Notes: generated from the letters alone by a model not told the origin. 64,000 nucleotides of DNA from an uncultured Cytophagia bacterium (GCA_964399735.1 CAYNSO010000003.1:51970-115969); one strand, 5' to 3'; shown: positions 9,629 to 64,000, counted from the first letter of the stretch. Program-made: numbers and translations.

Positions 9629-9630
9629 TC

Positions 9631-39294: not shown

Positions 39295-39322
39295 TTTTCA
39301 TTCAAAAATATTTTTATAAAAT

Positions 39323-45911: not shown

Positions 45912-45956
45912 AATAAAAATACTGATACAAAGCAGATAAATTTATGGAGATATGAA

Positions 45957-46583: not shown

Positions 46584-46619
46584 TGACGACAAGCTGGCTC
46601 GGATAAACCTGGTGAATAA

Positions 46620-47201: not shown

Positions 47202-47221
47202 TCCTATCAGGAGGAGTAAAC

Positions 47222-47734: not shown

Positions 47735-47823
47735 TTGTTCACTTGATATTTGCAGATAAATTTTGTATTATTATCTAAATATATCTCAACAGGATTTGTT
47801 AAAAAGGCCATAGGAGCAGGTAT

Positions 47824-48351
47824 ATGTCCGAATTGAAAATGCCTGATATCAATAATGTGCTGATTGCCGGAAATTTAACGAGCGATCCTATATTTCGAAA
47901 AACCAATAATGGAACATCTGTAACAAATTTCTTTATTGCTTCAAATCGTAAATACCGGGATAATTCCGGTATATGGCGAGAGAACCTTTGTTATGTTGGT
48001 GTTGTTGCCTGGCATAGATTGGCAGATACATGTAATGAAATTTTGAAAAAGGGCAGCGCCGTTTTGATTGATGGAGAATTACAAAGCAGAAACTGGCGGA
48101 ATGAAGATGGTACCAGCAGAAATGTAGTAGAAATTCGTGCACGGAGAATTCAATTCCTTGACAAAGCATTATCGGCAGAAGTTGAAGAAATGGCAATTAA
48201 TGATAGTGAAGAAAAGACTAACATAACAAATGATGAACAACCGGGTATCCAGCAGCCAATTCCGGAAGAAAATATTCCCATTGCACCAATAAAAGAAATC
48301 AAGGTGGAACCAACTGAATTTGATTTTGGTTATAAAAATTTGAATCTATAA
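47824..48351 (+). CDS. ssb: Single-stranded DNA-binding protein (OB fold; between rpsF and rpsR)
   Basis: 175 aa. OB-fold core (NNVLIAGNLTSDPIFRKTNNGTSVTNFFIASNRKY...WHRLADTCNEILKKGSAVLIDGELQSRNW). The C-terminus ends ...FDFGYKNLNL rather than the classic DDDIPF. Confidence 0.7.
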   Translation: MSELKMPDINNVLIAGNLTSDPIFRKTNNGTSVTNFFIASNRKYRDNSGIWRENLCYVGVVAWHRLADTCNEILKKGSAVLIDGELQSRNWRNEDGTSRNVVEIRARRIQFLDKALSAEVEEMAINDSEEKTNITNDEQPGIQQPIPEENIPIAPIKEIKVEPTEFDFGYKNLNL

Positions 48352-48372
48352 AGTATCATAAAAGGAGTTTCT

Positions 48373-48594
48373 ATGCTCAAAAAGAAAAGGATTTGCAGAT
48401 TTTGTGAAGAAAAAATCTTGTATATCGATTATAAAGACGATAAAAAGCTGCAACGATTCACAACCGAACAAGGGAAAATTATCCCCCGCAGAACATCTGG
48501 CACATGTGCAAAACATCAGCGTCAGTTGGTCAAAGCCCTTAATTTGGCCAGAGAAATCGCTCTGATACCATACGTTGCAGATTTGACTAAATAA
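48373..48594 (+). CDS. rpsR: 30S ribosomal protein S18
   Basis: 73 aa. [17 protein letters not shown]...[17 protein letters not shown]. Confidence 0.9.
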
Positions 48595-48615
48595 ATAATG
48601 CACAGGAAAGGAAAT

Positions 48616-49059
48616 ATGAAAGTAATATTAAAAAAAGATATTGATACTTTGGGTAATGCTGGAGACATTGTTGAAGTGAAACAAGGTTATGCCAGAAATT
48701 TCCTGATTCCCTCCAACATGGCTATTGCCGCCTCACCTTCAAACCTGCGATCTTTTAATGAAGAAAAAAAGTTGTTTGAAAGACGCGAACTGAAAGGCAA
48801 AAAAGAGGCCGAACTATTGGCTGCAAAACTGGATAAAGTATCCCTTACCGCTACTGTTCAGGTTGGTGAAGAAGATAAAGTGTTTGGCTCGGTAACAAAC
48901 CAGAATATTGCTGATATGCTAAAAGATCAGGGTTTTGACATCGACCGTAGAAAAATCCAGCTGGATGAACCTTTAAAAGCATTGGGAGTATACGATATTC
49001 CCGTAAAACTGCACCATGAAGTTGAAGCCAAAGTAAAAGTGTGGGTGGTGAGAGACTAG
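48616..49059 (+). CDS. rplI: 50S ribosomal protein L9
   Basis: MKVILKKDIDTLGNAGDIVEVKQGYARNFLIP is the canonical L9 N-terminus. ATG at 48616 is preceded by AGGAAAGG. The ORF track starts 18 nt further upstream. Confidence 0.9.
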   Translation: MKVILKKDIDTLGNAGDIVEVKQGYARNFLIPSNMAIAASPSNLRSFNEEKKLFERRELKGKKEAELLAAKLDKVSLTATVQVGEEDKVFGSVTNQNIADMLKDQGFDIDRRKIQLDEPLKALGVYDIPVKLHHEVEAKVKVWVVRD

Positions 49060-49336
49060 TTTTTACCGGCAATCAATCCCGGAATGTTTTTTTGATTGAT
49101 TGCCTTTCTGCCAGCAATTTGCATAAATTCTCATTGAAACAGGGGGAAGAGAACTCGTCAACAAACCGGCGCTTCCCTGATAATACTTGACTTTATCATT
49201 ATTAGCAACAGTTTATTATTCCCGTAAAATTACGTGTAAAAAGAGTTGATTTTAATAATCCAAACGATTATTTTATAATAACTAAAACTTGTTTGCCACT
49301 TGTTAAAATTAACTAATAACCAAGAGGGAAAAAAAA

Positions 49337-49528
49337 GTGGAAAGTACATTTCCGAAATGCCAAAAATGTAATAATGGAATACTGATTCCCTTGTCAGATT
49401 ACGGCAGAGATGGCGCGACGATCATGTACAAAGCATGGGTTTGCACAAATCCATCCTGTGGATTTAACATCAGAATTGATAACGGTGAAATCAGTCTGGG
49501 TAAAGAAATTAAAGAATCCACAAAATAG
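49337..49528 (+). CDS. Small zinc-ribbon protein (CxxC...CxxxxC), hypothetical
   Basis: 63 aa, GTG start preceded by AGAGGGA. Cys pairs CQKC and CTNPSC, about 30 residues apart. Follows a 277-nt leader/intergenic region. Confidence 0.35.
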   Translation: MESTFPKCQKCNNGILIPLSDYGRDGATIMYKAWVCTNPSCGFNIRIDNGEISLGKEIKESTK

Positions 49529-49564
49529 CGCGTTGACGGATTTTCCTGTATCGTAATTGTTGGT

Positions 49565-50539
49565 TTGTCTATTTTGAAACTGATTAAAAAAAATATCCTG
49601 TTTAAACAGGAATTAAGCTTTTGGAGGCGGCATAAAGTAAAAATTATTTCCACTCTTGTCGCCTTATTTGTCTGGTTTTTAATTGTATCAGGGGGTACTT
49701 TTGATTACAATGTGTCAATTCCAATTACCTGTACCAATACCGGGGATAGTTACATTGTTGTTAATAAATTACCAAAAAACGGCCGGGTTATTCTCCGGGG
49801 TCAGGGTATTCATTTAATGGTTTTTTCTTTATTTAAAGAGGGACGCTTAAATATTGAACCGCAATGGGAAGCCGGACAATCATTTATTTACCCTTCTGAA
49901 AAAGATGTAATATTGTATGGCAATGCGCTAAAGTTACAAATTGTAAAACTGACAGAACCGGATTCAATTGAATTACAGATCGAAAAACTGATTATACGCG
50001 AAGTTCCTGTAATAAATCAGGTTAATATCGTTCCCACAATTGGTCATACAATCGTTGGCGATATTATTATTGAACCGGATATTGCACTGATTAAAGGGCC
50101 AAAATCTATTGTTGATACAGTGAATTCTATATATACAAAAAAAGCCAAAGTTGAAAACATAAAATATCCCCTGCAAAAACAAATCGGCCTGATAAAACCA
50201 GCTATCCCCAATCTTGAACTGTTAAACAAGAATACTATGATAACCGCGGATATTCAAAAATTGATGGAGAAAAAAATAACCAATATCCCGGTTACGATTA
50301 TTAATCTTCCTCCCAATGTTTCCGCACTAATTATCCCATCACACATTTCCCTGGTAATACAAGGTGGTGCAAACCTGGTTTTTCCAGTAAACGAAAAAGA
50401 TATTGAAGCATATATCGATTATGCCAGGCAGCGCCCGTCCACTCAGCAGGATTTTCCAGCTTATATAAAACCAATTGCCGGGATTCGTTATCGCGATATT
50501 GAACCAAAACGCTTCAAGGTCATTCTTGAAAGAGAATAA
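49565..50539 (+). CDS. YbbR-like domain protein
   Basis: 324 aa, TTG start. N-terminal TM helix (IISTLVALFVWFLIV) followed by repeated beta-rich YbbR-like modules. No diadenylate cyclase gene is adjacent. Confidence 0.5.
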   Translation: MSILKLIKKNILFKQELSFWRRHKVKIISTLVALFVWFLIVSGGTFDYNVSIPITCTNTGDSYIVVNKLPKNGRVILRGQGIHLMVFSLFKEGRLNIEPQWEAGQSFIYPSEKDVILYGNALKLQIVKLTEPDSIELQIEKLIIREVPVINQVNIVPTIGHTIVGDIIIEPDIALIKGPKSIVDTVNSIYTKKAKVENIKYPLQKQIGLIKPAIPNLELLNKNTMITADIQKLMEKKITNIPVTIINLPPNVSALIIPSHISLVIQGGANLVFPVNEKDIEAYIDYARQRPSTQQDFPAYIKPIAGIRYRDIEPKRFKVILERE

Positions 50540-50552
50540 AGCTTGGAAAAAA

Positions 50553-51566
50553 ATGAACATATTAGGTATTGAAACATCCTGCGACGAAACAAGCGCAGCC
50601 GTGGTAAATGAACGCTCAATCCTTGCGAATATTATTGCCACACAAAGCATTCATCAAAAATATGGCGGCGTAGTACCGGAATATGCTTCGCGTGCTCATA
50701 TTGTCAAGCTGGCGCCAATTGTACAGGAAGCATTACAAACAGCCGGTGTAAACTATAAAGATTTGGATGGTCTGGCAGTTACTTATGGGCCGGGGCTGGC
50801 TGGCTCACTGCTGGCCGGGCTGTGCTTTTGCAAAGGACTGGCGCTCTCTTTAAATATTCCCTGGGTTGGAGTGAATCATATCGAAGGTCATATTGTTGCT
50901 GTTCATGCTAATGAACAAGAAATTGAATATCCGGCAATTTGTCTGGTGGCTTCCGGCGGGCATACTATTTTGATCCTTATCAAAGAACCCCTGCACTACC
51001 AGATACTGGGCAGAACAATAGATGATGCCGCTGGAGAGGCTTTTGATAAAATTGCAAAAATTCTGGGCCTTCCCTATCCGGGGGGGCCATCTATTGAAAA
51101 AGCAGCCGAAACAGGTAATGATAATGCAATCCGTTTTCCCCGCGCATTGATGGAAAACAATAATTATAATTTCAGTTTTAGTGGACTCAAAACCGCGGTT
51201 CTTTATCATGTGGAATCTTTACATAAATTGGGTAAAGAAATTCCTGTTGATGATATTTGCGCCAGTTTTCAAAAAGCGGTTATCGATGTGCTGGTACAAA
51301 AGAGTATGAATGCTGTAAAAGAATTCAAATGCAATTCACTGATTTTGGCAGGCGGGGTGGTACGCAACACACCACTACGGGAAAATTTCAGGGAACTTGC
51401 CAGGCAAGCTCAAGTTAACTTTTATGCACCGGCGCCGGAGCTCTGTACAGATAACGCGGCAATGATTGCCCGGGCTGGTTACATGCGCATGATGAAAAAC
51501 CAGCATTCTGATTTTTCGCTCGATGTTGTACCCAATTTATCATTTACCGACAGCGTCAATCAGTGA
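50553..51566 (+). CDS. tsaD: tRNA N6-adenosine threonylcarbamoyltransferase (Kae1/YgjD family)
   Basis: MNILGIETSCDETSAAVV..., HIEGH metal-binding motif (GVNHIEGHIVAVH). ATG at 50553. The ORF-track start at 50475 is an upstream in-frame extension. Confidence 0.9.
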   Translation: MNILGIETSCDETSAAVVNERSILANIIATQSIHQKYGGVVPEYASRAHIVKLAPIVQEALQTAGVNYKDLDGLAVTYGPGLAGSLLAGLCFCKGLALSLNIPWVGVNHIEGHIVAVHANEQEIEYPAICLVASGGHTILILIKEPLHYQILGRTIDDAAGEAFDKIAKILGLPYPGGPSIEKAAETGNDNAIRFPRALMENNNYNFSFSGLKTAVLYHVESLHKLGKEIPVDDICASFQKAVIDVLVQKSMNAVKEFKCNSLILAGGVVRNTPLRENFRELARQAQVNFYAPAPELCTDNAAMIARAGYMRMMKNQHSDFSLDVVPNLSFTDSVNQ

Positions 51567-51684: not shown

Positions 51685-53853
51685 ATGTTATTTTTAACCA
51701 TATCACAGTTCCATATTGCTGCAAAAAGTGTTTTGCTTTTATTTGCATTTATTATTGCAGGTATTTTTTTTACCCTTTATATTTATCGTTTTACCATCCC
51801 CCCTGTTTCATTATTTTTGAAAAGAATAATGTCCGGTTTACGTATAATTGCTCTGCTCCTGCTGCTTTTTGTAATATTTGAACTATCAGTAAACCTGATA
51901 AAAACCCGCAAAGACAAACCCCAGGTTGCAATAGCAATTGATACTTCGGCCAGTATGGCGGTAAAAGACGAAACCGGCATTCGTGCCGAAATCATTAAAG
52001 AGGTTTTACAAAACCCTGCATTTGCATACCTGCAGAACAATTTTATTATGAATTATTACACTTTTTCCAATACAACTCTAACTCATAAACAAGCGGATTC
52101 TTTGTTCTTTTCCGGTGATGCAACCAATATTATTCAATGTTTGCAATTTATAAAAAAAGAATTTACAGAAAAAAATCTTGCTGCAATCATTATGCTTTCC
52201 GATGGAAATTATAACCGGGGTGGCAACCCGGTGCGAATAGCGGAGCAACTGGGTACGCCGGTTTTTACAGTTGGCCTGGGTTCCGCGGAACCGGTAAAAG
52301 ATTTAGCCATTATCGAAGTTGAAAACAATTCGTTTTGTTATCTCGATGAATCCACACCGGTAAATGTCACAATCCGTAACCGCGGTTACGGGGAAATCGG
52401 CCTGCCAATATCTCTGACTGTTAATGATGAACTGATTGAAACTCAAATGCACACCCTGCCGGCTTTATCCGAACTTGAAGCTACCTTTAACGTAACACCA
52501 AAAATAACCGGAATCAATAAACTGGTTATCAGTATACCGGTGCAAAAAAATGAATTAATCGAACAAAATAACAGCCGCACAATATATATTGATGTTTTAA
52601 AATCCAGACTTTATATTCAGATTTATGCAGGTAGTCTGTCGCCTGATATTTCATTCCTGAAAAACAGTATTCTGTCGTCAAAACGATACTCTGTCGGTCT
52701 TTTAGTTGAAAAACCGGGCGGCGGTTTTTACAATTATGATAATGACACACAAGATACAGATATAATAATATTTATAGATTTTCCTACAGCTGTTACAGAC
52801 CAGGCGACTTTGACCCGGCTACTAGACGCTATGGAGACAAATGCGACTCCACTCTGGGTGATTACCGGAAAAAACATCAACCTGAAAAAATTATCCGCAT
52901 TTGAAAACTGGCTACCCTTTAAATGTAACGCCAATTACATAAATGAAACTCAAATTTATGCAGAACCCGGAGAAATTGGAAAAAACCATCCCATTCTTCA
53001 GCCGGCAATGCAAACATCAACCTGGATCTCAGCCTGGTTAAAATTGCCGCCAATATATACAATTCATCAGTTCCAACAATTCTGGCCTGAAACACAAACC
53101 CTGGTTAATGCAAGAACAACGTCAAGCCAACAGAACGCAAAAACCCCTGGTTCGCTTGTCGTCATTAGAACCAGGCAAATGCATAAATCTGCTGCAATTT
53201 TAGGGTATGGTTTATGGCGTTGGGAATTATTAATGAGGGGGGTCGGTGACGATAGCGATATTTATAATAATTTTATTAATAACATGTTACAATGGCTTGA
53301 AACAAAAAAAGAAACAAGCGCCTGGCAAATTAAAACCGATAAACAACATTATAATTTCGGGGAACCAATTAAAGTAACCGTAAATATAACAAAGCAGGCA
53401 TTGGCAATGGTAAATGAACCGGAATTAACCCTGTTACTCAACCATAAACAGGGTCAGGAATCTGTTACCGTATCCCGATCCGGTGATGACAGCTATTCAA
53501 ATGTTTTATACCTGGATAAAGCCGGCGATTACCAACTGACGCTTGATAGCGCCACAATGTCACATATTACCAATAAACCCGATGAAGCAGTGTTTAGCAT
53601 TGGTGAATATAGTGTTGAACTGAATAATACGCAATTACAAAAACCGACATTACAGGACCTGGCGCTCAATAGCGGTGGCAGATACGTTGAGCCGGACTCG
53701 GTAGCTTTACTGCAAAAAGTGATTCATGGCGCTACCAGAACCAGCGCCCAGGCCTGGAATAAGGAATTATGGAATGAAAAATATATTCTTTTTTTAATCA
53801 TCTTTTTATTAGCTCTGGAATGGTTTTTGCGTAAGAAAAAGGGAATGCTTTAA
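51685..53853 (+). CDS. Membrane-anchored vWA-domain protein with N-terminal double-TM anchor (BatA-like architecture, longer)
   Basis: 722 aa. Two N-terminal TM helices, MIDAS-like motif VAIAIDTSASMAV, large extracytoplasmic region, and a C-terminal TM helix (ILFLIIFLLALEWFL). Confidence 0.55.
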   Translation: MLFLTISQFHIAAKSVLLLFAFIIAGIFFTLYIYRFTIPPVSLFLKRIMSGLRIIALLLLLFVIFELSVNLIKTRKDKPQVAIAIDTSASMAVKDETGIRAEIIKEVLQNPAFAYLQNNFIMNYYTFSNTTLTHKQADSLFFSGDATNIIQCLQFIKKEFTEKNLAAIIMLSDGNYNRGGNPVRIAEQLGTPVFTVGLGSAEPVKDLAIIEVENNSFCYLDESTPVNVTIRNRGYGEIGLPISLTVNDELIETQMHTLPALSELEATFNVTPKITGINKLVISIPVQKNELIEQNNSRTIYIDVLKSRLYIQIYAGSLSPDISFLKNSILSSKRYSVGLLVEKPGGGFYNYDNDTQDTDIIIFIDFPTAVTDQATLTRLLDAMETNATPLWVITGKNINLKKLSAFENWLPFKCNANYINETQIYAEPGEIGKNHPILQPAMQTSTWISAWLKLPPIYTIHQFQQFWPETQTLVNARTTSSQQNAKTPGSLVVIRTRQMHKSAAILGYGLWRWELLMRGVGDDSDIYNNFINNMLQWLETKKETSAWQIKTDKQHYNFGEPIKVTVNITKQALAMVNEPELTLLLNHKQGQESVTVSRSGDDSYSNVLYLDKAGDYQLTLDSATMSHITNKPDEAVFSIGEYSVELNNTQLQKPTLQDLALNSGGRYVEPDSVALLQKVIHGATRTSAQAWNKELWNEKYILFLIIFLLALEWFLRKKKGML

Positions 53854-54015
53854 CTCATCAATCTCTAGTAATATCAACGCCAGAGCTAATCCGGGTTCTG
53901 GCAAAATAAATGTTGCAATTTTGCTTCACTTGTCATAAATTTAAGACTAATATGTAAAGTGTGCATTGACGTTTTTGCAATTGAGTATTTCTAATTTGAA
54001 TTCCGGTTATATAAA

Positions 54016-55053
54016 ATGAAAGGATATACTTTGAAAAAGACAACGTTATTGTTGATAGTAATGTATGTTATTATCCCCTTGCGTTCCTTTTCCCAGGTAT
54101 CATATTACGGTGGTAAAGGGCTATTGAGAATAATTGAAGCAGAGACAATTCATCCCGGAATTCTGGCTGTCAATGCTGTATATAACGGCTATGCCGCAGG
54201 AGACAACTATAATTTCAGTGAAGACCATTCCTTATATCTGGGGGCGACGGTTGGTATATCGGAACATTTTGAAATATTTTCACAATTAACGCCCTACCAG
54301 GATGATCAAAAACACACCTGGGGGCCAATTGGCGATTCCAAATTGTGTGTTAAATATCACATTCCCAATAACAGCACAATGGTAAAATTTGGAATTGTTG
54401 GTTATCTGAGTTTTCCAACTGCGGTAAACCACAATGTACCATTTGAATCGTACAGCAACGATGCAATGGGCTGGGCATTAATGAGTTTAACATCGTTCGA
54501 TTTGAAAAATGTCTCCTCCACCCTGCCCCTGAAATTGACTCTGAATTTGGGATATCGGGATCATAATTGGGGCGATCAATTCTTTTCTGCTCGCAAGGAT
54601 CAGTTAATAGGCGGGTTGGGATTTAAATTTCCAGTTCGTTCCAATCTGCTTTATTCTGAAATAACCGGTGAATATTTTATCAATAATACCGAAAATGTTA
54701 CCCCCAGTCAAAATTTTATTCGCTTTACCCAGGGTTATCGTTTTGTTGGCCCCTGGCATCTTATTTGTGACCTTGCCGCAGATATTGAACTGGGTGGTTA
54801 CAGACCAGATAAAAAAGATCTATACAAAGATTCCTACATTAAAGATTATGCCGACTGGAAAATTATATTCGGAGTTTCTTATCGTACCACACTGTTTGCA
54901 GGTAAAACCAAAGCAGAAAAACTTGAAGAAGAAAAAGCTCGTTTGGAACAACAGGAACTCAATAAAATTCAGGACAAACGAGAAAAAGTAATAAAAGATT
55001 TGGAAGAATTAAGAAAGCAACTGGAACAGGAAAAAAAGCCAACTACGGATTAA
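54016..55053 (+). CDS. Secreted/outer-membrane protein with C-terminal coiled coil, hypothetical
   Basis: 345 aa. Signal peptide (LLLIVMYVIIPLRSFSQ), beta-rich body, and a C-terminal charged coiled coil (KAEKLEEEKARLEQQELNKIQDKREKVIKDLEELRKQLEQEKK). Confidence 0.4.
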   Translation: MKGYTLKKTTLLLIVMYVIIPLRSFSQVSYYGGKGLLRIIEAETIHPGILAVNAVYNGYAAGDNYNFSEDHSLYLGATVGISEHFEIFSQLTPYQDDQKHTWGPIGDSKLCVKYHIPNNSTMVKFGIVGYLSFPTAVNHNVPFESYSNDAMGWALMSLTSFDLKNVSSTLPLKLTLNLGYRDHNWGDQFFSARKDQLIGGLGFKFPVRSNLLYSEITGEYFINNTENVTPSQNFIRFTQGYRFVGPWHLICDLAADIELGGYRPDKKDLYKDSYIKDYADWKIIFGVSYRTTLFAGKTKAEKLEEEKARLEQQELNKIQDKREKVIKDLEELRKQLEQEKKPTTD

Positions 55054-55147
55054 ATTTTTTACGTAAACCCTATGTTTTGTTGTATAATTTAATAATAAAA
55101 AGAGTGAAATATGTGGTGTTTTTTCAGCAGCGCCGGGAAAATACCGA

Positions 55148-56590
55148 TTGATAATTATTATAAAGCTGTACAGACCAAGAATGAATTTTTTGATGCAAAA
55201 TCTTGCAATACCTGAAAAAAAGCAATTTAACATCAGGGCGATTTTTATCGTCCTCTTGTTTTTTATATTACAATCATATTCTTTAGCTATACCCCCGGTT
55301 GACTCACCGACTAAACAGCTAAGCCCACGGCAGTATGATGAACTTGAAAAAGCCTCGGCAAAACTACATTCAGAAGCTCAGCAATTGTTTGATAATGGTA
55401 ATTACTGGGAAAGCGCCCGCAATCTGATCATTTTACTCGATTTTAATAATAGCTATTCAAAAATTGATGAAGTGATTTTTACTCTGGGCGACTGTTTGTA
55501 TGAAATTGGTCTTAATGAGGGCTCCAAGAAAATATTCAAATACCTGGTAAAAAAATTCATATCCAGCGATCAACTTCCCCGCGCTTTGCTCGGGCTGCAA
55601 CGGATAGAATATGATAGTGAAAACCTGATAAAATGTATTGATTTTTATAAAGTGATCTCCAGAGGCAGTCCTCCCCAGGAGATTCTGGATTGTTCACGTT
55701 ATTATGCAGGTCTCAGTTTTTATAAACTGAATGATTACACAAATGCAATTGATATTTTATCACAAATTAATCGCTCGAATCCATATTATGCCTTTGGGCA
55801 GTACACATGCGGCTTGTCGTACCTGCGTTTGAAAAAAGTTCGCAAAGCCGTCGATACCATGAACGGGATATTGCGTATTGCTATTGTTAATGATGAAATG
55901 CGCAGCATTGTGGACGAGACTCACTTGACTTTGGGTTATATTTATTACGAACTCGGCTATTATGAACATTCCTGGCAGCAATTTAATTCTGTTTCGTCAA
56001 ATCATACCAATTATCGCGATGCCTTGTTATCCGCCGGGTGGGCTGCAACCAAACTGCAAGATTATGAGCGGGCTATCAATCCATTAACACAATTGGTTAG
56101 TTTTAAAGAAGAAGATGAAAAAACCCAGGAAGGGTTCTTTTTACTTGGTCAATGTTATTTAAAATTAGGGCTGTATGACGATGCCCTTAAAATATACGAG
56201 TTTCTGGTTAACATACTACCCAAAAGAGAACTGGTGCCCGTCATAATTCAGCAAGTTGGTGGTGGTATTGCCCAGGAAGAGAAAAAAATTGAAAAAATAA
56301 AAATGGATTTACTGGTTCTGGAAACAAAATTATTAAACCTGATTCAGCTAAACCCCGATATGGACACCCCGGCATACCTGCAGAAAGAAAAATCAGAGAT
56401 TACGACAACACGGAACAATTTGTTAACTCAAATTCAATCAGAACGTAAATCGTTCGAACAGTTCTCCGGTCAAATTAAAGAGATGAAAGAAAAAATTCAA
56501 ATCAGAAAAGAACGGCAGGACTGGAGAGCTTTTGCTGAATATGGTAAATCACGAGCTATGTTTTTAAAAAGAACTGAAACACAAAATTAA
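55148..56590 (+). CDS. TPR-repeat protein with C-terminal coiled coil
   Basis: 480 aa. N-terminal signal/TM, multiple TPR-like repeats (YYAGLSFYKLNDYTNAIDIL, GYIYYELGYYEHSWQQF, LGQCYLKLGLYDDALKIY). The start is possibly Met at 55181. Confidence 0.65.
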   Translation: MIIIIKLYRPRMNFLMQNLAIPEKKQFNIRAIFIVLLFFILQSYSLAIPPVDSPTKQLSPRQYDELEKASAKLHSEAQQLFDNGNYWESARNLIILLDFNNSYSKIDEVIFTLGDCLYEIGLNEGSKKIFKYLVKKFISSDQLPRALLGLQRIEYDSENLIKCIDFYKVISRGSPPQEILDCSRYYAGLSFYKLNDYTNAIDILSQINRSNPYYAFGQYTCGLSYLRLKKVRKAVDTMNGILRIAIVNDEMRSIVDETHLTLGYIYYELGYYEHSWQQFNSVSSNHTNYRDALLSAGWAATKLQDYERAINPLTQLVSFKEEDEKTQEGFFLLGQCYLKLGLYDDALKIYEFLVNILPKRELVPVIIQQVGGGIAQEEKKIEKIKMDLLVLETKLLNLIQLNPDMDTPAYLQKEKSEITTTRNNLLTQIQSERKSFEQFSGQIKEMKEKIQIRKERQDWRAFAEYGKSRAMFLKRTETQN

Positions 56591-59526
56591 TGCAACTGAT
56601 GAAAAAATCCTTTTATAATAAAATTCCAGGCATCCTGTTTCTATTTCTTTCAATATTTCCCCTCTGTTTACAAACCGGTTATTCACAGGAAAGCGCTTTT
56701 GTTTCAGCGATTATCAAAGAAACGGGCGAAGACCTGGTTAAACTGGGTGAAATTATTAAAGAACACCAAGCCTTGTTGGAAAAATACCCGAAAGGGCCTT
56801 TTGCTTCCACAATTATGTTTCAACTTGCCGAACTGGAAGCACAAAGAAGCAATGTAATTTATCAACAGGAAATGCGGTTATTTGAAGAAAACCTCAAAAA
56901 ATTTGACGAAGGACAGCTTGCTGTCGAGCCCCCAATGCCAAAATTGGACATGAGCACAACCATTCAATATTGCAACACTTTGCTCAAAGAGTTTCCCAAT
57001 TCAAAATTCCAGGATAAAATCCTGTACAAGCTGGGCATTTCATACTTGCAGGAAGGGGATAAACTAAAAGCCAAAAACTATTTTGAAAGCATTGTTGGCA
57101 ATTACCCGGAATCACCAGTTGCCCTTGAAGCTCATTTTCGTATTGGTGAATATTATTTTGATAAACGCGATCTTGAAAATGCAATTTATCATTACAGCAA
57201 ATTGTTAGCAGACTGGAATAATCCTTATTTTGATATGTCGCTCTACAAACTGGGTTGGTCGTATTATAACCTGAGCAGTTATAGCAAGGCAATCAGCAGT
57301 TTTTTATATTTGATAGAAGATATTTCCCTGGTGGAAAAAGCTGAAACGCAAATTCTCAGTAAAAGTAAAACAGATTTACGGCTTGAATCTATTCATTATA
57401 TTGCCAGTTGTTTTACAGAATTTGGCGGCCCCCGGGGAGCTAAAGAATTCCTGGTAAAATATAAAGAAAAAGAATATACAATGCCAATTCTGCTTAAAAT
57501 GAGCGAACTCTATAAAAAACGCAATTACTATGCAGAGGCAATTGAAACCTATAAAGCAATTCTTGAATTATATCCCTATTATTCCGAAGCGCCGGAGATA
57601 TATCAAAACATTATAGATAATTATGAAGCCAATGAAGATTTGTCAGGCGCCAATAAAGTCCGTGAAGAACTGGTAGATCAAATCGGACCGGGAAGTAACT
57701 GGCTTACTCAAAACCCCGACAATGAAGTAAAGAATAACGGTCTTGCTGTAACCCGCGAAACGCTTGTTTACCTGGGAGGTTTTTACCAGGCTGAAGCACA
57801 AACCTCCGGCAGCAAAGAAACCTATTTGAAAGCAATTGCAAAATACCTGGACTATATTAAAAAATTTCCAAATGCCGAGGATGTACCAAAAATTAATTAC
57901 TATCTGGCAGAATGTTACTATAATATCCAGGATTTCACCCAGGCCGCCGATTGTTATCACAATGTTGTAATTCAAGACCCCCTGAACAAAACCGGGTTTC
58001 GTGAAGAAGCGGCATATAACCGAATTTTATGTTATTATGAATTAATGAATACCTCCGGAACGCCTGATGTAAACTCGACCAGTATCCCCAATTTTTTAGG
58101 TACAAACGACACGCTGGTTATTGCGAATATTAATAAACCGGCAGAAATAAATACTCTACTGGCAAGCAATGATTTCTTTCTCACCTTTCCTCACAGCAAA
58201 TGGCTTGATCAGGTGATGATGAAATATGGTGAAATTTTGCACAGTTTGAAATATTATCTGCCGGCTATCGAAGTCTACAAAAAAATATTACAACTTGGTA
58301 ATGCCAGGCCCTACTCTCTTACCGCTTCCATGAGCGCCGGGCAATGTTATTTTGATGCAGAATTGTTTTATGAAGCGGAAATCTGGTTTAATAATATTGT
58401 AAAGAATTTTCCCGATTCAACCCGTTATACCAAAAGAGCGCAAATCCTTGCATCATCGGCAAATTTTAAAATAGCCGAGCAACTTAGCGACTCGGGGAAA
58501 AATCTTGAAGCGGCAAAACTGCTTGGTACAGTTGTAGACAAAGCGGCTGAACCGGGTATCCAGGAACGGGCAGTATTTGAGGCCGCCGCACAATACCAAA
58601 AAGCCGGTCAACCGGGCCAGGCCGCCACAATGCTTGAAAAATTATATACTCTGCAACCAAATTCAAACCTGGTTGATGAAGCTTTAAAAAATGCAGCTGA
58701 ATTACGGGAAAATAATAAAGAGGCTTCTTTGGCAGCTCGTAATTATCTGCTGCTGGCAGACAATTACCCCCTCTCCAAACATGCCAAACGCTCTGTTATT
58801 AATGCTGCTGTTAATTACGAAAATTTGCAGGACTGGTTTTCTGCCAAAGCTACATACAATAAATATGTCACATCTTTTCCGGATTCCGGCGATGATTATA
58901 TAGAGTGTATGTTTAAAATTGGGGAAATGAACTACAAGCTGAATGATTATTACAATGCCGAAATCGCATTCAACAATACAATCATTACCTACAATAACAT
59001 GGTTAATGAAGGGCAGTTCCTCGATACTTATTTCATTGCCCAGGCGCAATTTATGCTAGGTGAAATTTATTATATCTCGTATAAGCAAATCAACCTCACC
59101 CCCCCCCTTGAAACAAATTTAAAGCTGAAAGTAGCGAGCTATCAAAAGGTTCTTAATGCATATAAAGATGCCTTGCTATACCAGGTAGCTGACTGGAGTA
59201 CGGCCGCCACTTTTAAAATTGGCATGACTTTTGAAGAGTTATTCAGAGCATTTATTGAATCACCTCCGCCTGACGGATTGACCGACGATCAGTTAAATAC
59301 TTATGTTACCGCACTGCAGGAAAGAGCGGAACCATATAAACAACAGGCATTGGAAACATACAAACTCAATGTAGAACAGGCGATAAGTAATAATATATCA
59401 AATAGTTGGATAGAGGAAAGCAAAAAAAGAATAGAAGCGCTTTCCGGTGAAACAGAAAAAAATGATATTGAAATGAACAGCGCCGACCAGGAAAATGTAA
59501 CACAGGGAACATTAGGAAAATCTTGA
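56590..59526 (+). CDS. Large TPR-repeat protein (secreted)
   Basis: 978 aa. Signal peptide, then more than 10 TPR-like repeats throughout (e.g. LGISYLQEGDKLKAKNYFESIVGNYPESP). Confidence 0.65.
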   Translation: MQLMKKSFYNKIPGILFLFLSIFPLCLQTGYSQESAFVSAIIKETGEDLVKLGEIIKEHQALLEKYPKGPFASTIMFQLAELEAQRSNVIYQQEMRLFEENLKKFDEGQLAVEPPMPKLDMSTTIQYCNTLLKEFPNSKFQDKILYKLGISYLQEGDKLKAKNYFESIVGNYPESPVALEAHFRIGEYYFDKRDLENAIYHYSKLLADWNNPYFDMSLYKLGWSYYNLSSYSKAISSFLYLIEDISLVEKAETQILSKSKTDLRLESIHYIASCFTEFGGPRGAKEFLVKYKEKEYTMPILLKMSELYKKRNYYAEAIETYKAILELYPYYSEAPEIYQNIIDNYEANEDLSGANKVREELVDQIGPGSNWLTQNPDNEVKNNGLAVTRETLVYLGGFYQAEAQTSGSKETYLKAIAKYLDYIKKFPNAEDVPKINYYLAECYYNIQDFTQAADCYHNVVIQDPLNKTGFREEAAYNRILCYYELMNTSGTPDVNSTSIPNFLGTNDTLVIANINKPAEINTLLASNDFFLTFPHSKWLDQVMMKYGEILHSLKYYLPAIEVYKKILQLGNARPYSLTASMSAGQCYFDAELFYEAEIWFNNIVKNFPDSTRYTKRAQILASSANFKIAEQLSDSGKNLEAAKLLGTVVDKAAEPGIQERAVFEAAAQYQKAGQPGQAATMLEKLYTLQPNSNLVDEALKNAAELRENNKEASLAARNYLLLADNYPLSKHAKRSVINAAVNYENLQDWFSAKATYNKYVTSFPDSGDDYIECMFKIGEMNYKLNDYYNAEIAFNNTIITYNNMVNEGQFLDTYFIAQAQFMLGEIYYISYKQINLTPPLETNLKLKVASYQKVLNAYKDALLYQVADWSTAATFKIGMTFEELFRAFIESPPPDGLTDDQLNTYVTALQERAEPYKQQALETYKLNVEQAISNNISNSWIEESKKRIEALSGETEKNDIEMNSADQENVTQGTLGKS

Positions 59527-59537
59527 GGTAATACAAA

Positions 59538-59921
59538 ATGGTAATTAAAAATAACAAATTTGCAATTCTTTATGCTGTTATCATTTTACTTTTTATTAAC
59601 AGCTCTCTTTACTCGCAAGAATCGGGTAATAATACATTATCTGAAAATTCGACAATAAATAGCCCGGTTATTTCAAATGATTCTTTGAACATTGATAATG
59701 AAAATATCAAAATGTTCATTGATAAAATCGAAGTAAATGTTCAACTGGAAAAACCACAAGCATTATTTATCTTGCCGGGTACAACACCGGATATTGATGA
59801 CATTCAAATTGAGCATTCATTTTTCAATGAAATTTTTCGGCCTGTCGAAAAACGGGGAAGAATCCAGACAAGTCTGACAACAGAGCCTGCCAAAGATCGT
59901 AAAGATTACATTCCCTGGTAA
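59538..59921 (+). CDS. Small secreted hypothetical protein
   Basis: 127 aa. Signal peptide (FAILYAVIILLFINSSLYSQ), Ser/Asn-rich region. No recognised domain. Confidence 0.3.
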   Translation: MVIKNNKFAILYAVIILLFINSSLYSQESGNNTLSENSTINSPVISNDSLNIDNENIKMFIDKIEVNVQLEKPQALFILPGTTPDIDDIQIEHSFFNEIFRPVEKRGRIQTSLTTEPAKDRKDYIPW

Positions 59922-59991
59922 GCCCGAATTTTAAAATTTTCTTTTGTGTAATAATCTTAACTAGTCATAACAACTGATTAAGGAGGTATCC

Positions 59992-60609
59992 TTGGGTAGC
60001 ATTATAGGTTTTTTTGTAAAGGGCGGAACGGTCATGTATCCGATTCTTCTGGCATTGATATTTGGCCTTGTGGTTATCATTGAAAGAGTAATCTTTATTC
60101 TATTTAAAAACCGCATAGATTCCGAATTGTTTGTTAACAAGATTGCCGAACTAATTAAAAGCGGGAACATCAACAAGGCGATTGAATATTGCAATATTTC
60201 GGATGCGGCTCTACCAAATATTACCAAAGCCGGTTTACAGGAAATTCATTCTACGCCGGCCAGCATTCAAAATGCTTTGGAACTGGCAGCTATGGTAGAA
60301 ATACCAAAACTTGAAAAACGAGTCAATTATCTTGCCATGATTGCCAATGTTGCTACCCTGTTGGGGTTGCTTGGTACTATTTTTGGTCTTATCAATTCAT
60401 TTGCCGCAGTTGCCCATGCCGAAGCGGCTGAAAAAGCAACTTTATTAACAGCCGGTATTTCTATCGCCATGAATACAACCGCATTTGGATTGGTTGTCGC
60501 TATTCCCTGCCTGATCGGGTATACATATCTGACGGAGAAAACCAATGAAATTATTGATGAAATAAACGAAAACGTAGCTCGTCTTTACAGGATCATGACT
60601 ACGAGGTAA
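59992..60609 (+). CDS. MotA/TolQ/ExbB proton-channel family protein
   Basis: 205 aa. Three TM helices and the conserved C-terminal channel region (LGLLGTIFGLINSFAAVA...AGISIAMNTTAFGLVVAIP). Confidence 0.8.
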   Translation: MGSIIGFFVKGGTVMYPILLALIFGLVVIIERVIFILFKNRIDSELFVNKIAELIKSGNINKAIEYCNISDAALPNITKAGLQEIHSTPASIQNALELAAMVEIPKLEKRVNYLAMIANVATLLGLLGTIFGLINSFAAVAHAEAAEKATLLTAGISIAMNTTAFGLVVAIPCLIGYTYLTEKTNEIIDEINENVARLYRIMTTR

Positions 60610-60612
60610 TGA

Positions 60613-61080
60613 ATGAATCTTAAAGAATCAATGCGCCGGAGAATGAGGGGGCATGCTCAGGATGTAGAAATTAATCTCACTTCAGTTATGAATATTTTTT
60701 TGATTCTTATTCCATTTTTATTGTTGACCGCAGTTTTTGTTCGTATTTCTGTTCTTGAACTGTCATTACCATCCCTGGATTCCAGCAGCCGGTCAGCTCA
60801 GGTAAAAAAACAAAAAAATGCAATCATTAATATTCTCATGATTGATGGCAATGGCTTTGAACTGAAAAGCCCGGAAATGAAATTTGCGCTAATAGCAAAA
60901 AAAGATGACAATTACGATTGGGACAAGCTGGTGACACAATTGAAAGAAATTAAAACCAAATATCCCGATTCTGAAGATATTCTTATTTCCGCAGTAGATT
61001 CAATTAAATATCAAATCATTATCAGTGTTATGGACAAATGCCGTGAATCCGGTTTTCCCAATATTTCTATTTCAGGTTAA
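60613..61080 (+). CDS. ExbD/TolR biopolymer transport protein
   Basis: 155 aa. N-terminal basic segment, single TM (INLTSVMNIFLILIPFLLL), periplasmic domain. Confidence 0.7.
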   Translation: MNLKESMRRRMRGHAQDVEINLTSVMNIFLILIPFLLLTAVFVRISVLELSLPSLDSSSRSAQVKKQKNAIINILMIDGNGFELKSPEMKFALIAKKDDNYDWDKLVTQLKEIKTKYPDSEDILISAVDSIKYQIIISVMDKCRESGFPNISISG

Positions 61081-61095
61081 GAAAGATTATTAATT

Positions 61096-61611
61096 ATGAA
61101 TATCGATGATAAAGCTCATTTAATAAATCTGTCGAAAAGCACAAAACACCGAGGACGTGGCACTGCCAGTTTGAAACTGACATCCATGATTGATATGTTT
61201 ACCATTCTACTGGTTTTTTTACTGAATCAGTACAGCGCCGAGGGACAGATCATGACCCTGACCAAAGATCTCAATCTGCCAGCATCAACATCGCAATTGC
61301 AACCCAGGGTAACCTCTATTATTTCAATAACGCAAGAATGGATTTTGGTAGATGGCAGACCTGTAGAGCGCATTGAAAACATTGTTACAGATGAGAAATT
61401 GATCATAGCTCCACTTTATTCAGAATTGACCAAAATCAAAAGCATAACCCAGGGTATTAACACAATTACCGATCAAATGGGCGGGTTTAAAGGGAACATT
61501 ACCATTCAAGGTAATTATGATATAACTTTTGACCTTTTGAAAAGAGTAATGTTAACCTGCGGCACAACCGGTTATAACAATATGCTACTAGCTGTTGCGC
61601 AAATAGAGTAG
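61096..61611 (+). CDS. ExbD/TolR biopolymer transport protein (second copy)
   Basis: 171 aa. LTSMIDMFTILLVFLL TM segment and ExbD-like periplasmic domain. Confidence 0.65.
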   Translation: MNIDDKAHLINLSKSTKHRGRGTASLKLTSMIDMFTILLVFLLNQYSAEGQIMTLTKDLNLPASTSQLQPRVTSIISITQEWILVDGRPVERIENIVTDEKLIIAPLYSELTKIKSITQGINTITDQMGGFKGNITIQGNYDITFDLLKRVMLTCGTTGYNNMLLAVAQIE

Positions 61612-61661
61612 TACGATAAATAACGATGACAGTTTTTAAAAAAATATAGAAATTCATATTA

Positions 61662-63056
61662 ATGGCATCTATGCGAAAACATTCAATTCTGGCGACAAAA
61701 ATTGTTCAGGGTAATAAAGAGACTGAACTGCATATCAAGCCGAATAAAAAGCTGACCATTGGCCGCAGTCCGGATAATGATATTGTCGTTTACAGTGACG
61801 CTTATCCCAAGAAACATACTCTTATTGAATGTAAAAAGGATACGTGTGTTTTAAACATAACTCCTAATATGAGTGGAGTTATTGAATATAAAAATTCCAG
61901 GCTCGATTTCAATGATTTATTTCTGCATGACCTGTTACCACGCAAAGGTGAGTTTTATACTCTGCCTTTCAGTCATGGCAGAACCGGCGCAATTAAAATT
62001 GCAGATACGGTAATTTATTTCAACTATGACGGCGACGGGTTACAATCATTAAAGGACATGCCGGGTTATACATGGAAGCAATCATTTTCCAAGACATTTT
62101 CCAAAGATTTATTATTCAAAACCTTATTAACACTTTTTTGTGTATTGGAAATTTTTCTGGCTATAAAATTAAAGGGCTATGAAGTTCCTCCTGTTGAGCC
62201 GCCGGATATTGATAAAGTACCTCAACGTTTTGCCAAATTTATTATTAACAAACCTGCGCCGCCAATCGAAACGGAATTGGCAACAACATCCGGGGCCGCT
62301 TCAGGTTCATCGGAAGAGGAATCTGGAGAGAATAAAGATAAAGAACCGGAAGCAAAAAAACCGGCAGGCGGTTCGGGAAGCGAACCGGGCAGCAAACCGG
62401 TAGTTGCCCAGGGTTTGCTGGGGCTTATTGGCGGAGCCGGAAGTTCAGACAATGCCAGCGCCACAGCAGATTTTTTAATTGAACAGGGCCTGGTAAAAGA
62501 ACTGGATGAATTGATAGGTACGCAAAAACTAACCAATACCCGTGCGAACGGCAGAAGAGGCGATGGCTCCGGCAGCGGGGGCGGTAGTGGTTCAGGCTCA
62601 GGTTCCGGTGACGGACTTGATGATCTTCTTGCCCTGGGTTTAGCCGGTGGAATTGATGATTTGTTACCCGCCGGCGGTGGAGTGGAAAAAGTTACATTAC
62701 AGAAAAAAGGGAATGTAAATATTGAACAACCCAAACAAATGCGAGGTTCTCAAGCCGCCCAGGCACAGCGTACACAACAGTCTGTAATGTCCATTATCAA
62801 TTCCCAGGAGGGGCGCATTATGTATACTTATAATAAATACCTGCGCGAAGACCCGAACCTGAGGGGCAAGATCAATGTCGACATTACTATTGAAGCAGAT
62901 GGAACGGTTAGTAATGTTGCTATTCTTGAAACGGATATACCCATACAGGAATTTATTCAGGATATTGTCAATATTTTACGACGTTTAAAATTTCCACCGA
63001 TAACCGAAGGGGCTGTTCAGGTCAATCTTCCCTTTGTGTTTAATCGAATGAACTGA
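61662..63056 (+). CDS. TonB/TolA-like energy transducer with FHA-like N-terminal cytoplasmic domain
   Basis: 464 aa. Residues about 1-150 are FHA-like (LTIGRSPDNDIVVYSD...KKHTLIE...NMSGVIEYKNSRLDFND). Then a single TM (LLFKTLLTLFCVLEIFLAIKL), a Pro-rich segment and a Gly/Ser low-complexity linker (GSGSGGGSGSGSGSGDG). The C-terminal roughly 90 aa resemble TonB_C (KINVDITIEADGTVSNVAILETD...FPPITEGAVQVNLPFVF). Confidence 0.5.
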   Translation: MASMRKHSILATKIVQGNKETELHIKPNKKLTIGRSPDNDIVVYSDAYPKKHTLIECKKDTCVLNITPNMSGVIEYKNSRLDFNDLFLHDLLPRKGEFYTLPFSHGRTGAIKIADTVIYFNYDGDGLQSLKDMPGYTWKQSFSKTFSKDLLFKTLLTLFCVLEIFLAIKLKGYEVPPVEPPDIDKVPQRFAKFIINKPAPPIETELATTSGAASGSSEEESGENKDKEPEAKKPAGGSGSEPGSKPVVAQGLLGLIGGAGSSDNASATADFLIEQGLVKELDELIGTQKLTNTRANGRRGDGSGSGGGSGSGSGSGDGLDDLLALGLAGGIDDLLPAGGGVEKVTLQKKGNVNIEQPKQMRGSQAAQAQRTQQSVMSIINSQEGRIMYTYNKYLREDPNLRGKINVDITIEADGTVSNVAILETDIPIQEFIQDIVNILRRLKFPPITEGAVQVNLPFVFNRMN

Positions 63057-63093
63057 TAAAAAAACCCTGCTTATGGCAGGGTTTTTTATTTTT
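63057..63093. terminator. Bidirectional rho-independent terminator between the convergent tonB-like gene and the sigma-54 activator gene
   Basis: TAAAAAAACCCTGC-ttatg-GCAGGGTTTTTTATTTTT. GC-rich 8-bp stem flanked by an A run on one side and a T run on the other. Confidence 0.75.
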
Positions 63094-63118
63094 GAACAAT
63101 ATGATTCTTGACAGTTTA

Positions 63119-64000
63119 TCAGTGTCTATTATTATGTGACCTGTCATTTTTATAATCAAGCGGATTAATTTGCAAATTGCGAATTTTTTGTTGCAAAAAC
63201 TGTCGTTTCATTTCCAATAATTTTGCTGCCTGGCTCACATTGCCCAAGGTCATTTTAAGAGCCTGATCGATCATACTCCATTCAAATTCACGAATCACCA
63301 GGTCTTTGGCATTGCTGAATGACACATCACCAGGCGCTAAATTTAAAAGATTTTGCGGGGTCTTTACCAACTCCGGGGGTAACAAATCGACAGTAATCAG
63401 CGGCTTTTCTGCCAGCACAACGCATTGTTCCAAAACATGTATAAATTGCCGAACATTTCCTGGCCAGTCATAATCCAGTAATAACTGCATAGCGGCAGAA
63501 TCAAAAGCTTGTATGTTTTTTGCATGCTTTTCAGCATAAACTTGCATATAATGGTTAGCCAGAACAGGAATATCAATTTTACGTTCGCGTAATGCCGGCA
63601 ACTGAATTTCTACAACCTTGATGCGATAATATAAATCCTCCCGGAATCTCCCCTCTTCAATTTCTTTGCGTAAATTTTTATTGGTAGCGCTAATCAACCG
63701 AACATCAGTTTGCAGCATTTTTTTGCCGCCCAAACGGGTAAAGGCTTTTTCTTCCAAAATTCGCAGAATTTTCGCCTGCGTGTCTATGCTCATATCGGCA
63801 ATTTCATCCAGAAACAGGGTGCCGCCATTGGCAATTTCAAACTTGCCCTGACGCTGGTTGATAGCCCCGGTATATGCTCCTTTTTCATGTCCGAACAACT
63901 CACTTTCCACCAGGTCTTTGGGAATAGCTGCACAGTTCATGGTAATAAAAGGCCCTGTTGCTCTTGCGCTGTATGAATGAATTGTCTTGGCAGCCAGTTC
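63119..64000 (-). CDS. Sigma-54-dependent transcriptional activator (bacterial enhancer-binding protein), N-terminus beyond window end
   Basis: AAA+ sigma-54 interaction domain with the GAFTGA-type motif (ESELFGHEKGAYTGA) and Walker B (GTLFLDEIADM). C-terminal Fis-type HTH (LGNVSQAAKLLEMKRQFLQQKIRNL). The ORF is open to the window edge. Confidence 0.85.
   Translation of the reverse strand, partial: ELAAKTIHSYSARATGPFITMNCAAIPKDLVESELFGHEKGAYTGAINQRQGKFEIANGGTLFLDEIADMSIDTQAKILRILEEKAFTRLGGKKMLQTDVRLISATNKNLRKEIEEGRFREDLYYRIKVVEIQLPALRERKIDIPVLANHYMQVYAEKHAKNIQAFDSAAMQLLLDYDWPGNVRQFIHVLEQCVVLAEKPLITVDLLPPELVKTPQNLLNLAPGDVSFSNAKDLVIREFEWSMIDQALKMTLGNVSQAAKLLEMKRQFLQQKIRNLQINPLDYKNDRSHNNRH

Follow-up and report, generated by a model that had tools for sequence, protein, structure and literature searches.

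This work concerns a cluster of envelope genes in a 64,000-nucleotide stretch of DNA from an uncultured Cytophagia bacterium (GCA_964399735.1 CAYNSO010000003.1:51970-115969), which is referred to as the window, with positions counted from its first nucleotide. The window carries a nine-gene envelope-machine operon on the plus strand (51685-63056) that ends in a gene for a bitopic energy transducer resembling GltG/PglI of Myxococcus xanthus (Table 1). The original prediction, made from the nucleotide sequence alone, had described a module of one ExbB-like and two ExbD-like proteins followed by a protein of TonB-like build with a forkhead-associated (FHA)-like N-terminal domain; in a listing of the open reading frames (ORFs) over 52-64 kb of the window, the four ORFs are found exactly where it placed them, all on the plus strand. 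The gaps within this group of genes are 3, 15 and 50 bp, and further upstream the start of the gene for the 978-residue tetratricopeptide repeat (TPR) protein overlaps the stop of the preceding TPR gene by 1 nucleotide. The end of the operon is marked by a strong, terminator-like hairpin located between the transducer gene and a convergent gene.

Table 1. Features of the nine-gene operon and of its transducer, with positions in the window (TM, transmembrane; vWA, von Willebrand factor type A; pThr, phosphothreonine; aa, amino acids).
Feature	Position	Strand	Remark
vWA membrane protein, 722 aa	51685..53853	+	first gene of syntenic cluster
Exported protein, 345 aa	54016..55053	+	no family match
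Exported TPR protein, 480 aa	55148..56590	+	TPR Pfam matches
Exported TPR protein, 978 aa	56590..59526	+	TPR_6/TPR_2/TPR_16 Pfam matches
Small exported protein, 127 aa	59538..59921	+	signal peptide, conserved C-terminal block
MotA/TolQ/ExbB stator channel subunit (AglR-like), 205 aa	59992..60609	+	Pfam MotA_ExbB
ExbD/TolR paralog 1, 155 aa	60613..61080	+	Pfam ExbD
ExbD/TolR paralog 2, 171 aa	61096..61611	+	Pfam ExbD
GltG/PglI-like bitopic energy transducer, 464 aa	61662..63056	+	NCBIfam GltG best match
Cytoplasmic FHA-fold domain of transducer, residues ~8-123	61683..62030	+	degenerate pThr-binding site
Single TM helix of transducer, residues ~150-172	62109..62177	+	Kyte-Doolittle peak
Periplasmic linker of transducer	62178..62768	+	Pro-rich start, acidic/Gly/Ser low-complexity stretches, conserved islands
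TonB/TolA-fold C-terminal domain, AgmX/PglI subtype, residues ~370-464	62769..63053	+	
Intrinsic-terminator-like hairpin, 13-bp stem + T run	63059..63097	+	3 nt past transducer stop codon

The best NCBIfam match of the transducer is the GltG model (NF033760; 8.2e-23), in which residues 27-461 align to positions 224-646 of the 650-position profile. Its C-terminus passes the curated model of the AgmX/PglI C-terminal domain (NF033768), for which residues 371-461 score 72.9 bits (cutoff, 40). We collected 54 homologs, the named ones from KSB1 bacteria, and aligned the 46 that are full-length; N- and C-terminal sub-alignments were cut from these. Both models are matched by all 46 KSB1-type homologs. 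An 86%-identical homolog carries the NCBI name 'AgmX/PglI C-terminal domain-containing protein', and several sources label homologs 'energy transducer TonB' or else 'TonB family protein'. More general models score below their thresholds, among them Pfam TonB_C (PF03544; 20.4 versus 24.6 bits, 7e-4, residues 399-461), TIGR01352 (tonB_Cterm; 23.4 versus 27.1 bits) and Pfam FHA (PF00498; 17.0 versus 20.7 bits, E-value 0.008, residues 32-64 only), and residues 14-65 match the Pfam family Yop-YscD_cpl weakly, again below threshold (0.0034). Predicted structures back an FHA fold for the N-terminal domain and a TonB/TolA fold for the C-terminus, in each case well beyond chance. Structural matches of the N-terminal domain include the FHA-fold domains of YscD, MxiG and EssC, and TolA is found among those of the C-terminal domain. 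Both fold assignments made in the original prediction are thus borne out by the predicted structures.

The transducer contains a single hydrophobic segment, at residues ~150-172 in a Kyte-Doolittle plot, with a lysine-rich N-terminal flank and an acidic C-terminal flank. Because this charge distribution indicates an N-in/C-out orientation, the first ~150 residues are expected to be cytoplasmic and the remainder periplasmic, in agreement with the unusually long cytoplasmic part noted originally. The polar residue Glu163 in the middle of the TM helix is near-invariant among the KSB1-type homologs, and in the wider family its column holds His, Gln, Asn or Glu in 72 of 103 sequences (aligned with MAFFT; the alignment is less certain at this point). 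A histidine in the TM helix of TonB and TolA is functionally important, and Glu163 recalls that residue. The helix leads into a linker with a proline-rich start (PPVEPPDIDKVP and PAPP), a further stretch GSGSGGGSGSGSGSG, and runs of glycine, serine and acidic residues. Two islands within the linker are conserved, GLLGLIGG and DFLxxQGLVKELD, which correspond to invariant or near-invariant columns (251-258 and 270-282) of the 46-homolog alignment. The protein therefore has the TonB-like architecture that had been proposed for it, consisting of a cytoplasmic FHA fold, one TM helix, a proline-rich linker with Gly/Ser runs, and a TonB_C-like domain.

The N-terminal domain carries the sequence pattern that had first suggested an FHA domain, namely G34-R35, N39-D40-I-V-V, H52 and the N69-M-S-G72 turn. 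Its register was fixed by profile-to-sequence alignment to the FHA domain of ArnA, in which the canonical FHA motifs G-R, S-R-K-H and T-N-G correspond to G34-R35, P49-K50-K51-H52 and M70-S71-G72, respectively. The canonical Ser-Arg pair had been reported as replaced by Lys-Lys, an assignment that is off by one residue, as the serine aligns to Pro49 and the arginine to Lys50. At the position of the pThr-contacting serine, a proline is present in 43 of the 46 KSB1-type homologs and in 92 of 103 wider representatives of the family. The pThr-contacting arginine (Arg35 in the window protein) is retained in 22 of the 46 and 15 of the 103 sequences, and the position of the contacting asparagine (Ser71) is variable in both sets, with an asparagine in just 1 of the 46. 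The columns that are conserved family-wide are Gly34, Asn39, Pro49, Gly72, Gly109 and Phe120, and no canonical pThr-contact position is among them. We conclude that the domain has an FHA fold but that its phosphopeptide site is not under selection. The original prediction had taken the FHA-like domain to imply control by Ser/Thr phosphorylation or recruitment of a phosphoprotein; because the pThr triad (Arg, Ser, Asn) is not conserved, such control is unsupported. Several FHA-fold domains of membrane machines, of the YscD, MxiG and EssC type, reportedly do not bind pThr.

The three genes that precede the transducer encode a motor-type stator module, as had been supposed. The 205-residue protein matches Pfam MotA_ExbB (9e-30), with TolQ as its best NCBIfam match (2.4e-23), and contains three TM segments within the hydrophobic stretches 4-42, 113-141 and 151-181. 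Both following proteins match Pfam ExbD (4e-22 for ExbD1 and 6e-10 for ExbD2), and ExbD1 has TolR as its best NCBIfam match (9e-10). The two paralogs differ at the essential proton-binding aspartate of the TM helix. In an alignment to an ExbD chain (7ajq_F) Asn27 of ExbD1 sits opposite this aspartate, whereas Asp33 of ExbD2 aligns to Asp25 of E. coli ExbD (6tyi_Y), such that the TM aspartate is kept. This asymmetry is consistent: all 32 related locus records have an asparagine at this position in ExbD1 and an aspartate in ExbD2, and three distant relatives (L034-L036) have Asn, Ser or Ala in ExbD1 and Asp in ExbD2. Since only ExbD2 has retained the aspartate, the sequences suggest a heterodimeric ExbD plug with a single protonatable site, which agrees with the modeled AglQ/AglS heterodimer of M. 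xanthus.

The five upstream genes encode membrane or exported proteins. The 722-residue protein begins with two TM segments and continues with a vWA domain of the BatA/BatB type (~73-200) and a hydrophobic C-terminal tail. Pfam and NCBIfam scans of its single sequence gave nothing useful, and Pfam showed no vWA domain; a profile built from 11 orthologs matches the vWA structures 4jdu, 3ibs and 4rck (3.6e-5 to 2e-4), and the residues of its metal-ion-dependent adhesion site (MIDAS), Asp86, Ser88, Ser90, Thr147 and Asp173, are invariant in the orthologs, which upholds the vWA identity assigned to it from the outset. The 345-residue protein has a hydrophobic, signal-like segment (residues 10-29) and a highly charged, coiled-coil-like tail rich in Lys and Glu. 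Pfam, NCBIfam and a PDB profile search all fail to match it, its gene position is kept in 23 of the 31 distinct loci, divergent ones included, and it is possibly a component of the outer-membrane end of the apparatus. The 480-residue TPR protein has a C-terminal region of long helices and weakly matches the NCBIfam GltC model (1.1e-8), and the 978-residue TPR protein exceeds the cutoff of the NCBIfam YbgF/CpoB repeat model (116.6 versus 90.1 bits) by way of six repeat stretches. By size and position, the former may be an analogue of GltE/GltC and the latter an analogue of the GltD scaffold. The 127-residue protein combines a signal peptide with a low-complexity region and a C-terminal block that is strongly conserved among 19 orthologs (KLFLDKIEV..LEKPQAVFI.PG..IDDIQIERSFF.EIFRPVEK...RKDYIPW); neither Pfam nor NCBIfam gives a match for the protein. 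It occupies the slot of gltF in Myxococcus, and may by this token be an analogue of GltF; a small gene fills the same slot in distant relatives.

The operon was compared by tblastn with 31 related loci from species-representative genomes. The order vWA, exported protein, TPR, TPR, small protein, ExbB, ExbD, ExbD, GltG-like is common to ~30 of these loci, whose labels include KSB1, Calditrichota and 'uncultured Cytophagia', and this shared synteny sustains the suspicion that the upstream TPR and vWA proteins belong to the same apparatus. The vWA gene is syntenic in most loci and undetectable only in the most divergent, the 978-residue TPR gene is syntenic in every sufficiently long locus, and the 480-residue TPR gene is syntenic as well. 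In 29 of the 31 distinct related loci, as well as in four distant relatives, the GltG-like gene is accompanied by an ExbB gene and two distinct ExbD genes. A contig scan with the family alignment, whose back-translated patterns proved too specific, returned close relatives labeled KSB1 or Calditrichota only; the distant ones were obtained through a profile search with the N-terminal domain. A hidden Markov model of this domain, run against 1.84 billion cluster representatives (clusters at 50% identity), matches 671 proteins at E <= 1e-3; at E <= 1e-10 the number is 114. Most of the matched proteins are 430-500 residues long and carry the domain at the extreme N-terminus. Among the 103 full-length top matches, 101 match GltG and 98 match the AgmX/PglI C-terminal domain.

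Distant loci preserve the core of this arrangement. In a metagenome-assembled genome of the Fermentibacterales (L034) and in a second locus (L035), the order is TPR, small gene, ExbB, ExbD, ExbD, GltG-like; L035 adjoins Wza/Wzc-like polysaccharide-export genes, and its TPR protein matches GltE (3.7e-14). The P0104 locus has three TPR genes followed by the small gene, ExbB, ExbD, ExbD and the GltG-like gene, with a Wza-like polysaccharide-export gene just downstream. Some proteins of ~925 residues (P0078, P0084 and P0097) carry the GltG-type FHA-fold domain three times in tandem, and in L036 the gene for such a protein (10001-12778; 925 residues) lies directly upstream of ExbB-ExbD-ExbD. In a 5013-residue protein, P0099, profile positions 99-125 are matched by 31 short stretches, possibly as a repeat artefact. 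One variant locus, L033, keeps the upstream genes (vWA, exported protein, two TPR, small protein) and is without ExbB and ExbD genes. It encodes a TonB_C protein of 426 residues (9437-10717) whose linker and C-terminus are shared with the window transducer; in this protein, as in P0050 and P0051, a different and largely non-FHA cytoplasmic region replaces the N-terminal FHA-fold domain. The swap in L033 fits a tie between the FHA-like domain and the stator.

The protein with which the transducer is best compared has been described in M. xanthus. GltG/PglI is bitopic and combines an FHA domain in the cytosol (PF00498) with a TonB C-terminal domain (PMC3169522, Luciano et al. 2011, Table 1), and it interacts with the TolQ-like AglR in a two-hybrid assay (PMC3169522). 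The same study defined a 'core complex' comprising aglR, aglQ, aglS, gltD, gltE, gltC (all three TPR) and gltG. Gamma- and betaproteobacteria, Geobacter and one member of the Fibrobacteres have this set of genes grouped in a single region, and its function there is not known (PMC3169522). GltG has two FHA domains, the second of which (190-329) immediately precedes the TM helix (330-348), and in an AlphaFold model this second domain and the helix dock on an AglR5-AglQ-AglS stator at its cytoplasmic face (PMC11761067, Commun Biol 2025). In this model the disordered periplasmic segment of GltG wraps the TPR protein GltD and a β-strand of GltF pairs with the TonB-like domain, and the extra N-terminal FHA domain is predicted to bind GltI, a giant cytoplasmic TPR protein specific to myxobacteria (PMC11761067).

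Like M. xanthus GltG (PglI, MXAN_4867), the window transducer has an FHA fold directly before its TM helix, a proline-rich, disordered linker and an AgmX/PglI-type C-terminus, but it consists of 464 residues with one FHA fold, as compared to 640 residues with two, and lacks the extra N-terminal FHA domain. By alignment, it corresponds to the membrane-proximal part of GltG, i.e. the second FHA domain, the TM helix, the linker and the C-terminal domain. As in the Agl-Glt system, its gene is accompanied by genes for one TolQ/ExbB-like and two different TolR/ExbD-like proteins, large exported TPR proteins and a small exported protein, and the cluster shares the single-operon layout of the non-myxobacterial core complexes. 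The differences are that no GltA/B/H/K, CglB, GltI/J or AglZ is seen in the window cluster, that its TPR proteins are not demonstrably GltD/E orthologs, that it adds the BatA/B-like vWA membrane protein and the 345-residue exported protein, and that, unlike Myxococcus, the host is an uncultured KSB1-type bacterium in which gliding is not known. An FHA domain on a TonB-like transducer had originally seemed novel. That impression does not survive the comparison, as the architecture is that of the published GltG/PglI (PMC3169522, Table 1; PMC11761067) and a homolog is already named accordingly by NCBI; judged from the profile searches, the fusion belongs to a large, named family and is no peculiarity of the window.

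Taken together, we favor the interpretation that the last four genes of the nine-gene operon probably encode a Tol/Exb-type motor driven by the proton-motive force (PMF), of the Agl/Glt core-complex kind. The ExbB-like protein, whose family assignment is secure, would form the PMF channel in the membrane, presumably as a pentamer, and ExbD1 and ExbD2, by analogy with the AglQ/AglS model, would form its heterodimeric plug, in which the aspartate is found in ExbD2 only. The TM helix of the GltG-like protein, with the polar residue Glu163 at its middle, may pack against this stator. The membrane-proximal FHA fold would then dock, independently of phosphorylation, on the stator's cytoplasmic face or on some other partner in the cytoplasm, as extrapolated from the AlphaFold model in which the central FHA domain and TM helix of M. 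xanthus GltG dock on AglR5QS. A phospho-independent docking role fits that published model, and it also fits the presence of FHA-fold domains of secretion-system membrane proteins among the structural matches. In the periplasm, the long linker may wrap the exported TPR scaffolds by means of its GLLGLIGG and DFLxxQGLVKELD islands, and the TonB-fold domain may capture a β-strand of a periplasmic or outer-membrane partner, possibly the 127-residue protein. Most likely, such a motor serves the force-coupled organization or movement of a component of the envelope or cell surface and not the TonB-dependent import of nutrients.

The FHA domain could alternatively be a working pThr reader, in which case the motor would be under Ser/Thr kinase control or would recruit a phosphorylated partner. 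The predicted structure is that of a real FHA fold, G34-R35 and H52 are kept in the window protein, and a few homologs weakly match pThr-binding FHA proteins (FhaB, 1.6e-4; OdhI, 1.9e-6), but this explanation is very unlikely given that the family replaces the contacting serine with proline, retains the arginine in a minority of sequences and varies at the asparagine, and that its conserved columns include no canonical contact position. The structural matches to the YscD, MxiG and EssC folds also count against it, as does the finding that a Pfam scan of ~29 of the 60 large window ORFs detected no kinase or PP2C domain. A functional reader was therefore rejected on the degenerate triad across the 46 and 103 sequences. 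The resemblance to secretion systems has its own bounds. Like YscD/SctD, MxiG and PrgH of type III secretion systems and EssC of the type VII system, the transducer is a single-pass envelope-machine protein with an FHA fold on the cytoplasmic side, and it shares with these domains degenerate pThr residues and a weak match to Yop-YscD_cpl. Unlike these ring proteins, it has no sequence-level membership in their families, its periplasmic part is TonB-like instead of ring-building, and its partner is a Tol/Exb-type stator and not a secretion apparatus.

The four genes could also be read as parts of other Tol/Exb-type systems. An ordinary TonB-ExbB-ExbD nutrient-uptake system with an accessory N-terminal domain would account for the TonB fold, the sub-threshold TonB_C and tonB_Cterm matches and the names that several sources give to homologs, and the gene order ExbB-ExbD-ExbD-TonB is common in the Fibrobacterota-Chlorobiota-Bacteroidota (FCB) group. 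As in E. coli TonB-ExbB-ExbD, there is an ExbB-family channel, an ExbD plug with a TM aspartate (paralog 2), a single-TM transducer and a proline-containing spacer. In contrast to E. coli TonB, which has a cytoplasmic part of a few residues, the window transducer has one of ~150 residues with an FHA fold; the system also has two non-equivalent ExbD proteins, one of them without the aspartate, and is linked to TPR proteins, with which its synteny is tight and conserved. The C-terminus fits the AgmX/PglI model (72.9 bits) far better than tonB_Cterm (23.4 bits, sub-cutoff), and it falls short of both TonB cutoffs. The SHLS-type motif that is a feature of the TonB TM helix is missing from the transducer. 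There is also no gene for a TonB-dependent receptor in the cluster or nearby, the window ORFs of at least 700 residues encoding only Wzc-like, vWA and TPR proteins. A canonical uptake system, which we regard as highly improbable, was rejected on the missing receptor and the AgmX/PglI-subtype C-terminus. Somewhat less remote, though still unlikely, is a divergent Tol-Pal-type system (TolQ-TolR-TolA with a CpoB-like TPR protein) that serves outer-membrane tethering or constriction in division instead of a Glt-like surface process. The TolQ and TolR models are the best NCBIfam matches of the stator (2.4e-23 and 9e-10), the 978-residue protein has CpoB/YbgF-like repeats above the model cutoff, TolA is among the structural matches and shares with the transducer a TM helix, a long periplasmic extension and a small C-terminal domain, and the cluster adjoins housekeeping genes (TsaD, ribosomal proteins); the function of Agl/Glt core complexes outside the myxobacteria is not known (PMC3169522), which leaves room for a Tol-like role. 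However, Pfam and NCBIfam searches of the nine cluster genes revealed no TolB/PD40 β-propeller and no OmpA/Pal lipoprotein signature, and the YbgF match is a repeat-level TPR match of six stretches. Two distinct ExbD paralogs, presumably heterodimeric, stand in place of a single TolR, and the transducer specifically matches the GltG and AgmX/PglI models and carries an FHA-fold domain, unlike TolA.

Several observations weigh against a PMF motor of the Agl/Glt kind, which nevertheless remains the interpretation that we prefer. The transducer scores 80.8 bits against the cutoff of 650 of the GltG equivalog model. Because this cutoff is far from reached, equivalog membership was rejected, and by the NCBI standard the protein is a distant homolog of GltG and not an ortholog. 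Neither TPR protein (480 and 978 residues) matches the NCBIfam GltD and GltE models, the match to GltC is weak, and TPR models cross-match freely. The docking of the FHA fold on the stator is taken from an AlphaFold model of another species' proteins, and the retention of Arg35 and His52 in the window transducer would allow residual phosphopeptide binding. Lastly, no KSB1 member has been cultured.

A further and more speculative extension of this interpretation, which we hold to be possible but would not presume, is that the nine genes form a minimal, non-gliding Agl/Glt machine of KSB1 and the FCB group with an undescribed PMF-driven envelope function, e.g. the movement or exposure of an adhesin or polymer at the cell surface. 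Such a machine would be built from one FHA-fold stator adaptor that works independently of phosphorylation, an ExbD heterodimer that is obligately asymmetric and has only one protonatable aspartate, two TPR scaffolds, a small β-strand donor, the MIDAS-bearing vWA membrane protein and the exported protein. If it exists, it would make the ancestral role of the core complex, obscure since 2011, accessible to study.

The FHA and TonB_C transducer, the stator of one ExbB and two ExbD proteins and the TPR partners were described in 2011 and modeled in 2025, and existing NCBI models capture the protein. New in this work are the nine-gene operon that is conserved among KSB1-type genomes, the finding that the domain kept is the membrane-proximal FHA domain with a degenerate phospho-site, and the consistent loss of the aspartate from the first ExbD paralog. 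These results extend the Agl/Glt-type core complex to the uncultured FCB phylum KSB1/Zhuqueibacterota; neither literature searches on KSB1 and gliding nor the published description of the phylum Zhuqueibacterota yielded an account of the system. They also show that the single-FHA form of ~450 residues is widespread, with 671 representatives at the clustering level given above, and they correct a tempting over-reading, as the FHA fold is here no evidence for Ser/Thr-phosphorylation control of a PMF motor. Work on motor-transducer coupling may be guided by three features, namely the retained FHA domain that docks on the stator in the 2025 model, an ExbD1 without the aspartate, and an FHA-like domain that is swapped where stator genes are absent.

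The names of homologs suggest that the host is a KSB1/Zhuqueibacterota-type member of the FCB group. Convergent to the operon, on the minus strand, lies a gene for a sigma-54-dependent response regulator (Sigma54_activat, AAA_lid_14 and HTH_8; 63119-63940) that runs off the end of the window. The same gene occupies the equivalent site in at least 14 related loci, and in one locus (L001) it is followed by a HisKA/HATPase_c kinase; a regulatory link between the response regulator and the operon is possible. Upstream of the operon (44907-51566) are housekeeping genes for phosphoribosyl pyrophosphate synthetase, L25, Pth, S6, SSB, L9 and TsaD. Cell-elongation genes occupy 38074-41149 on the minus strand, encoding a RodA/FtsW-family protein (38074-39294) and a PBP2-type transpeptidase (39323-41149). 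An exopolysaccharide-type locus, also on the minus strand (26955-35047), encodes a Bac_transf priming glycosyltransferase (26955-28412), a 772-residue Wzc-like protein with GNVR and AAA_31 domains (29414-31732) and a starch-synthase-like GT5/GT1 protein (33521-35047).

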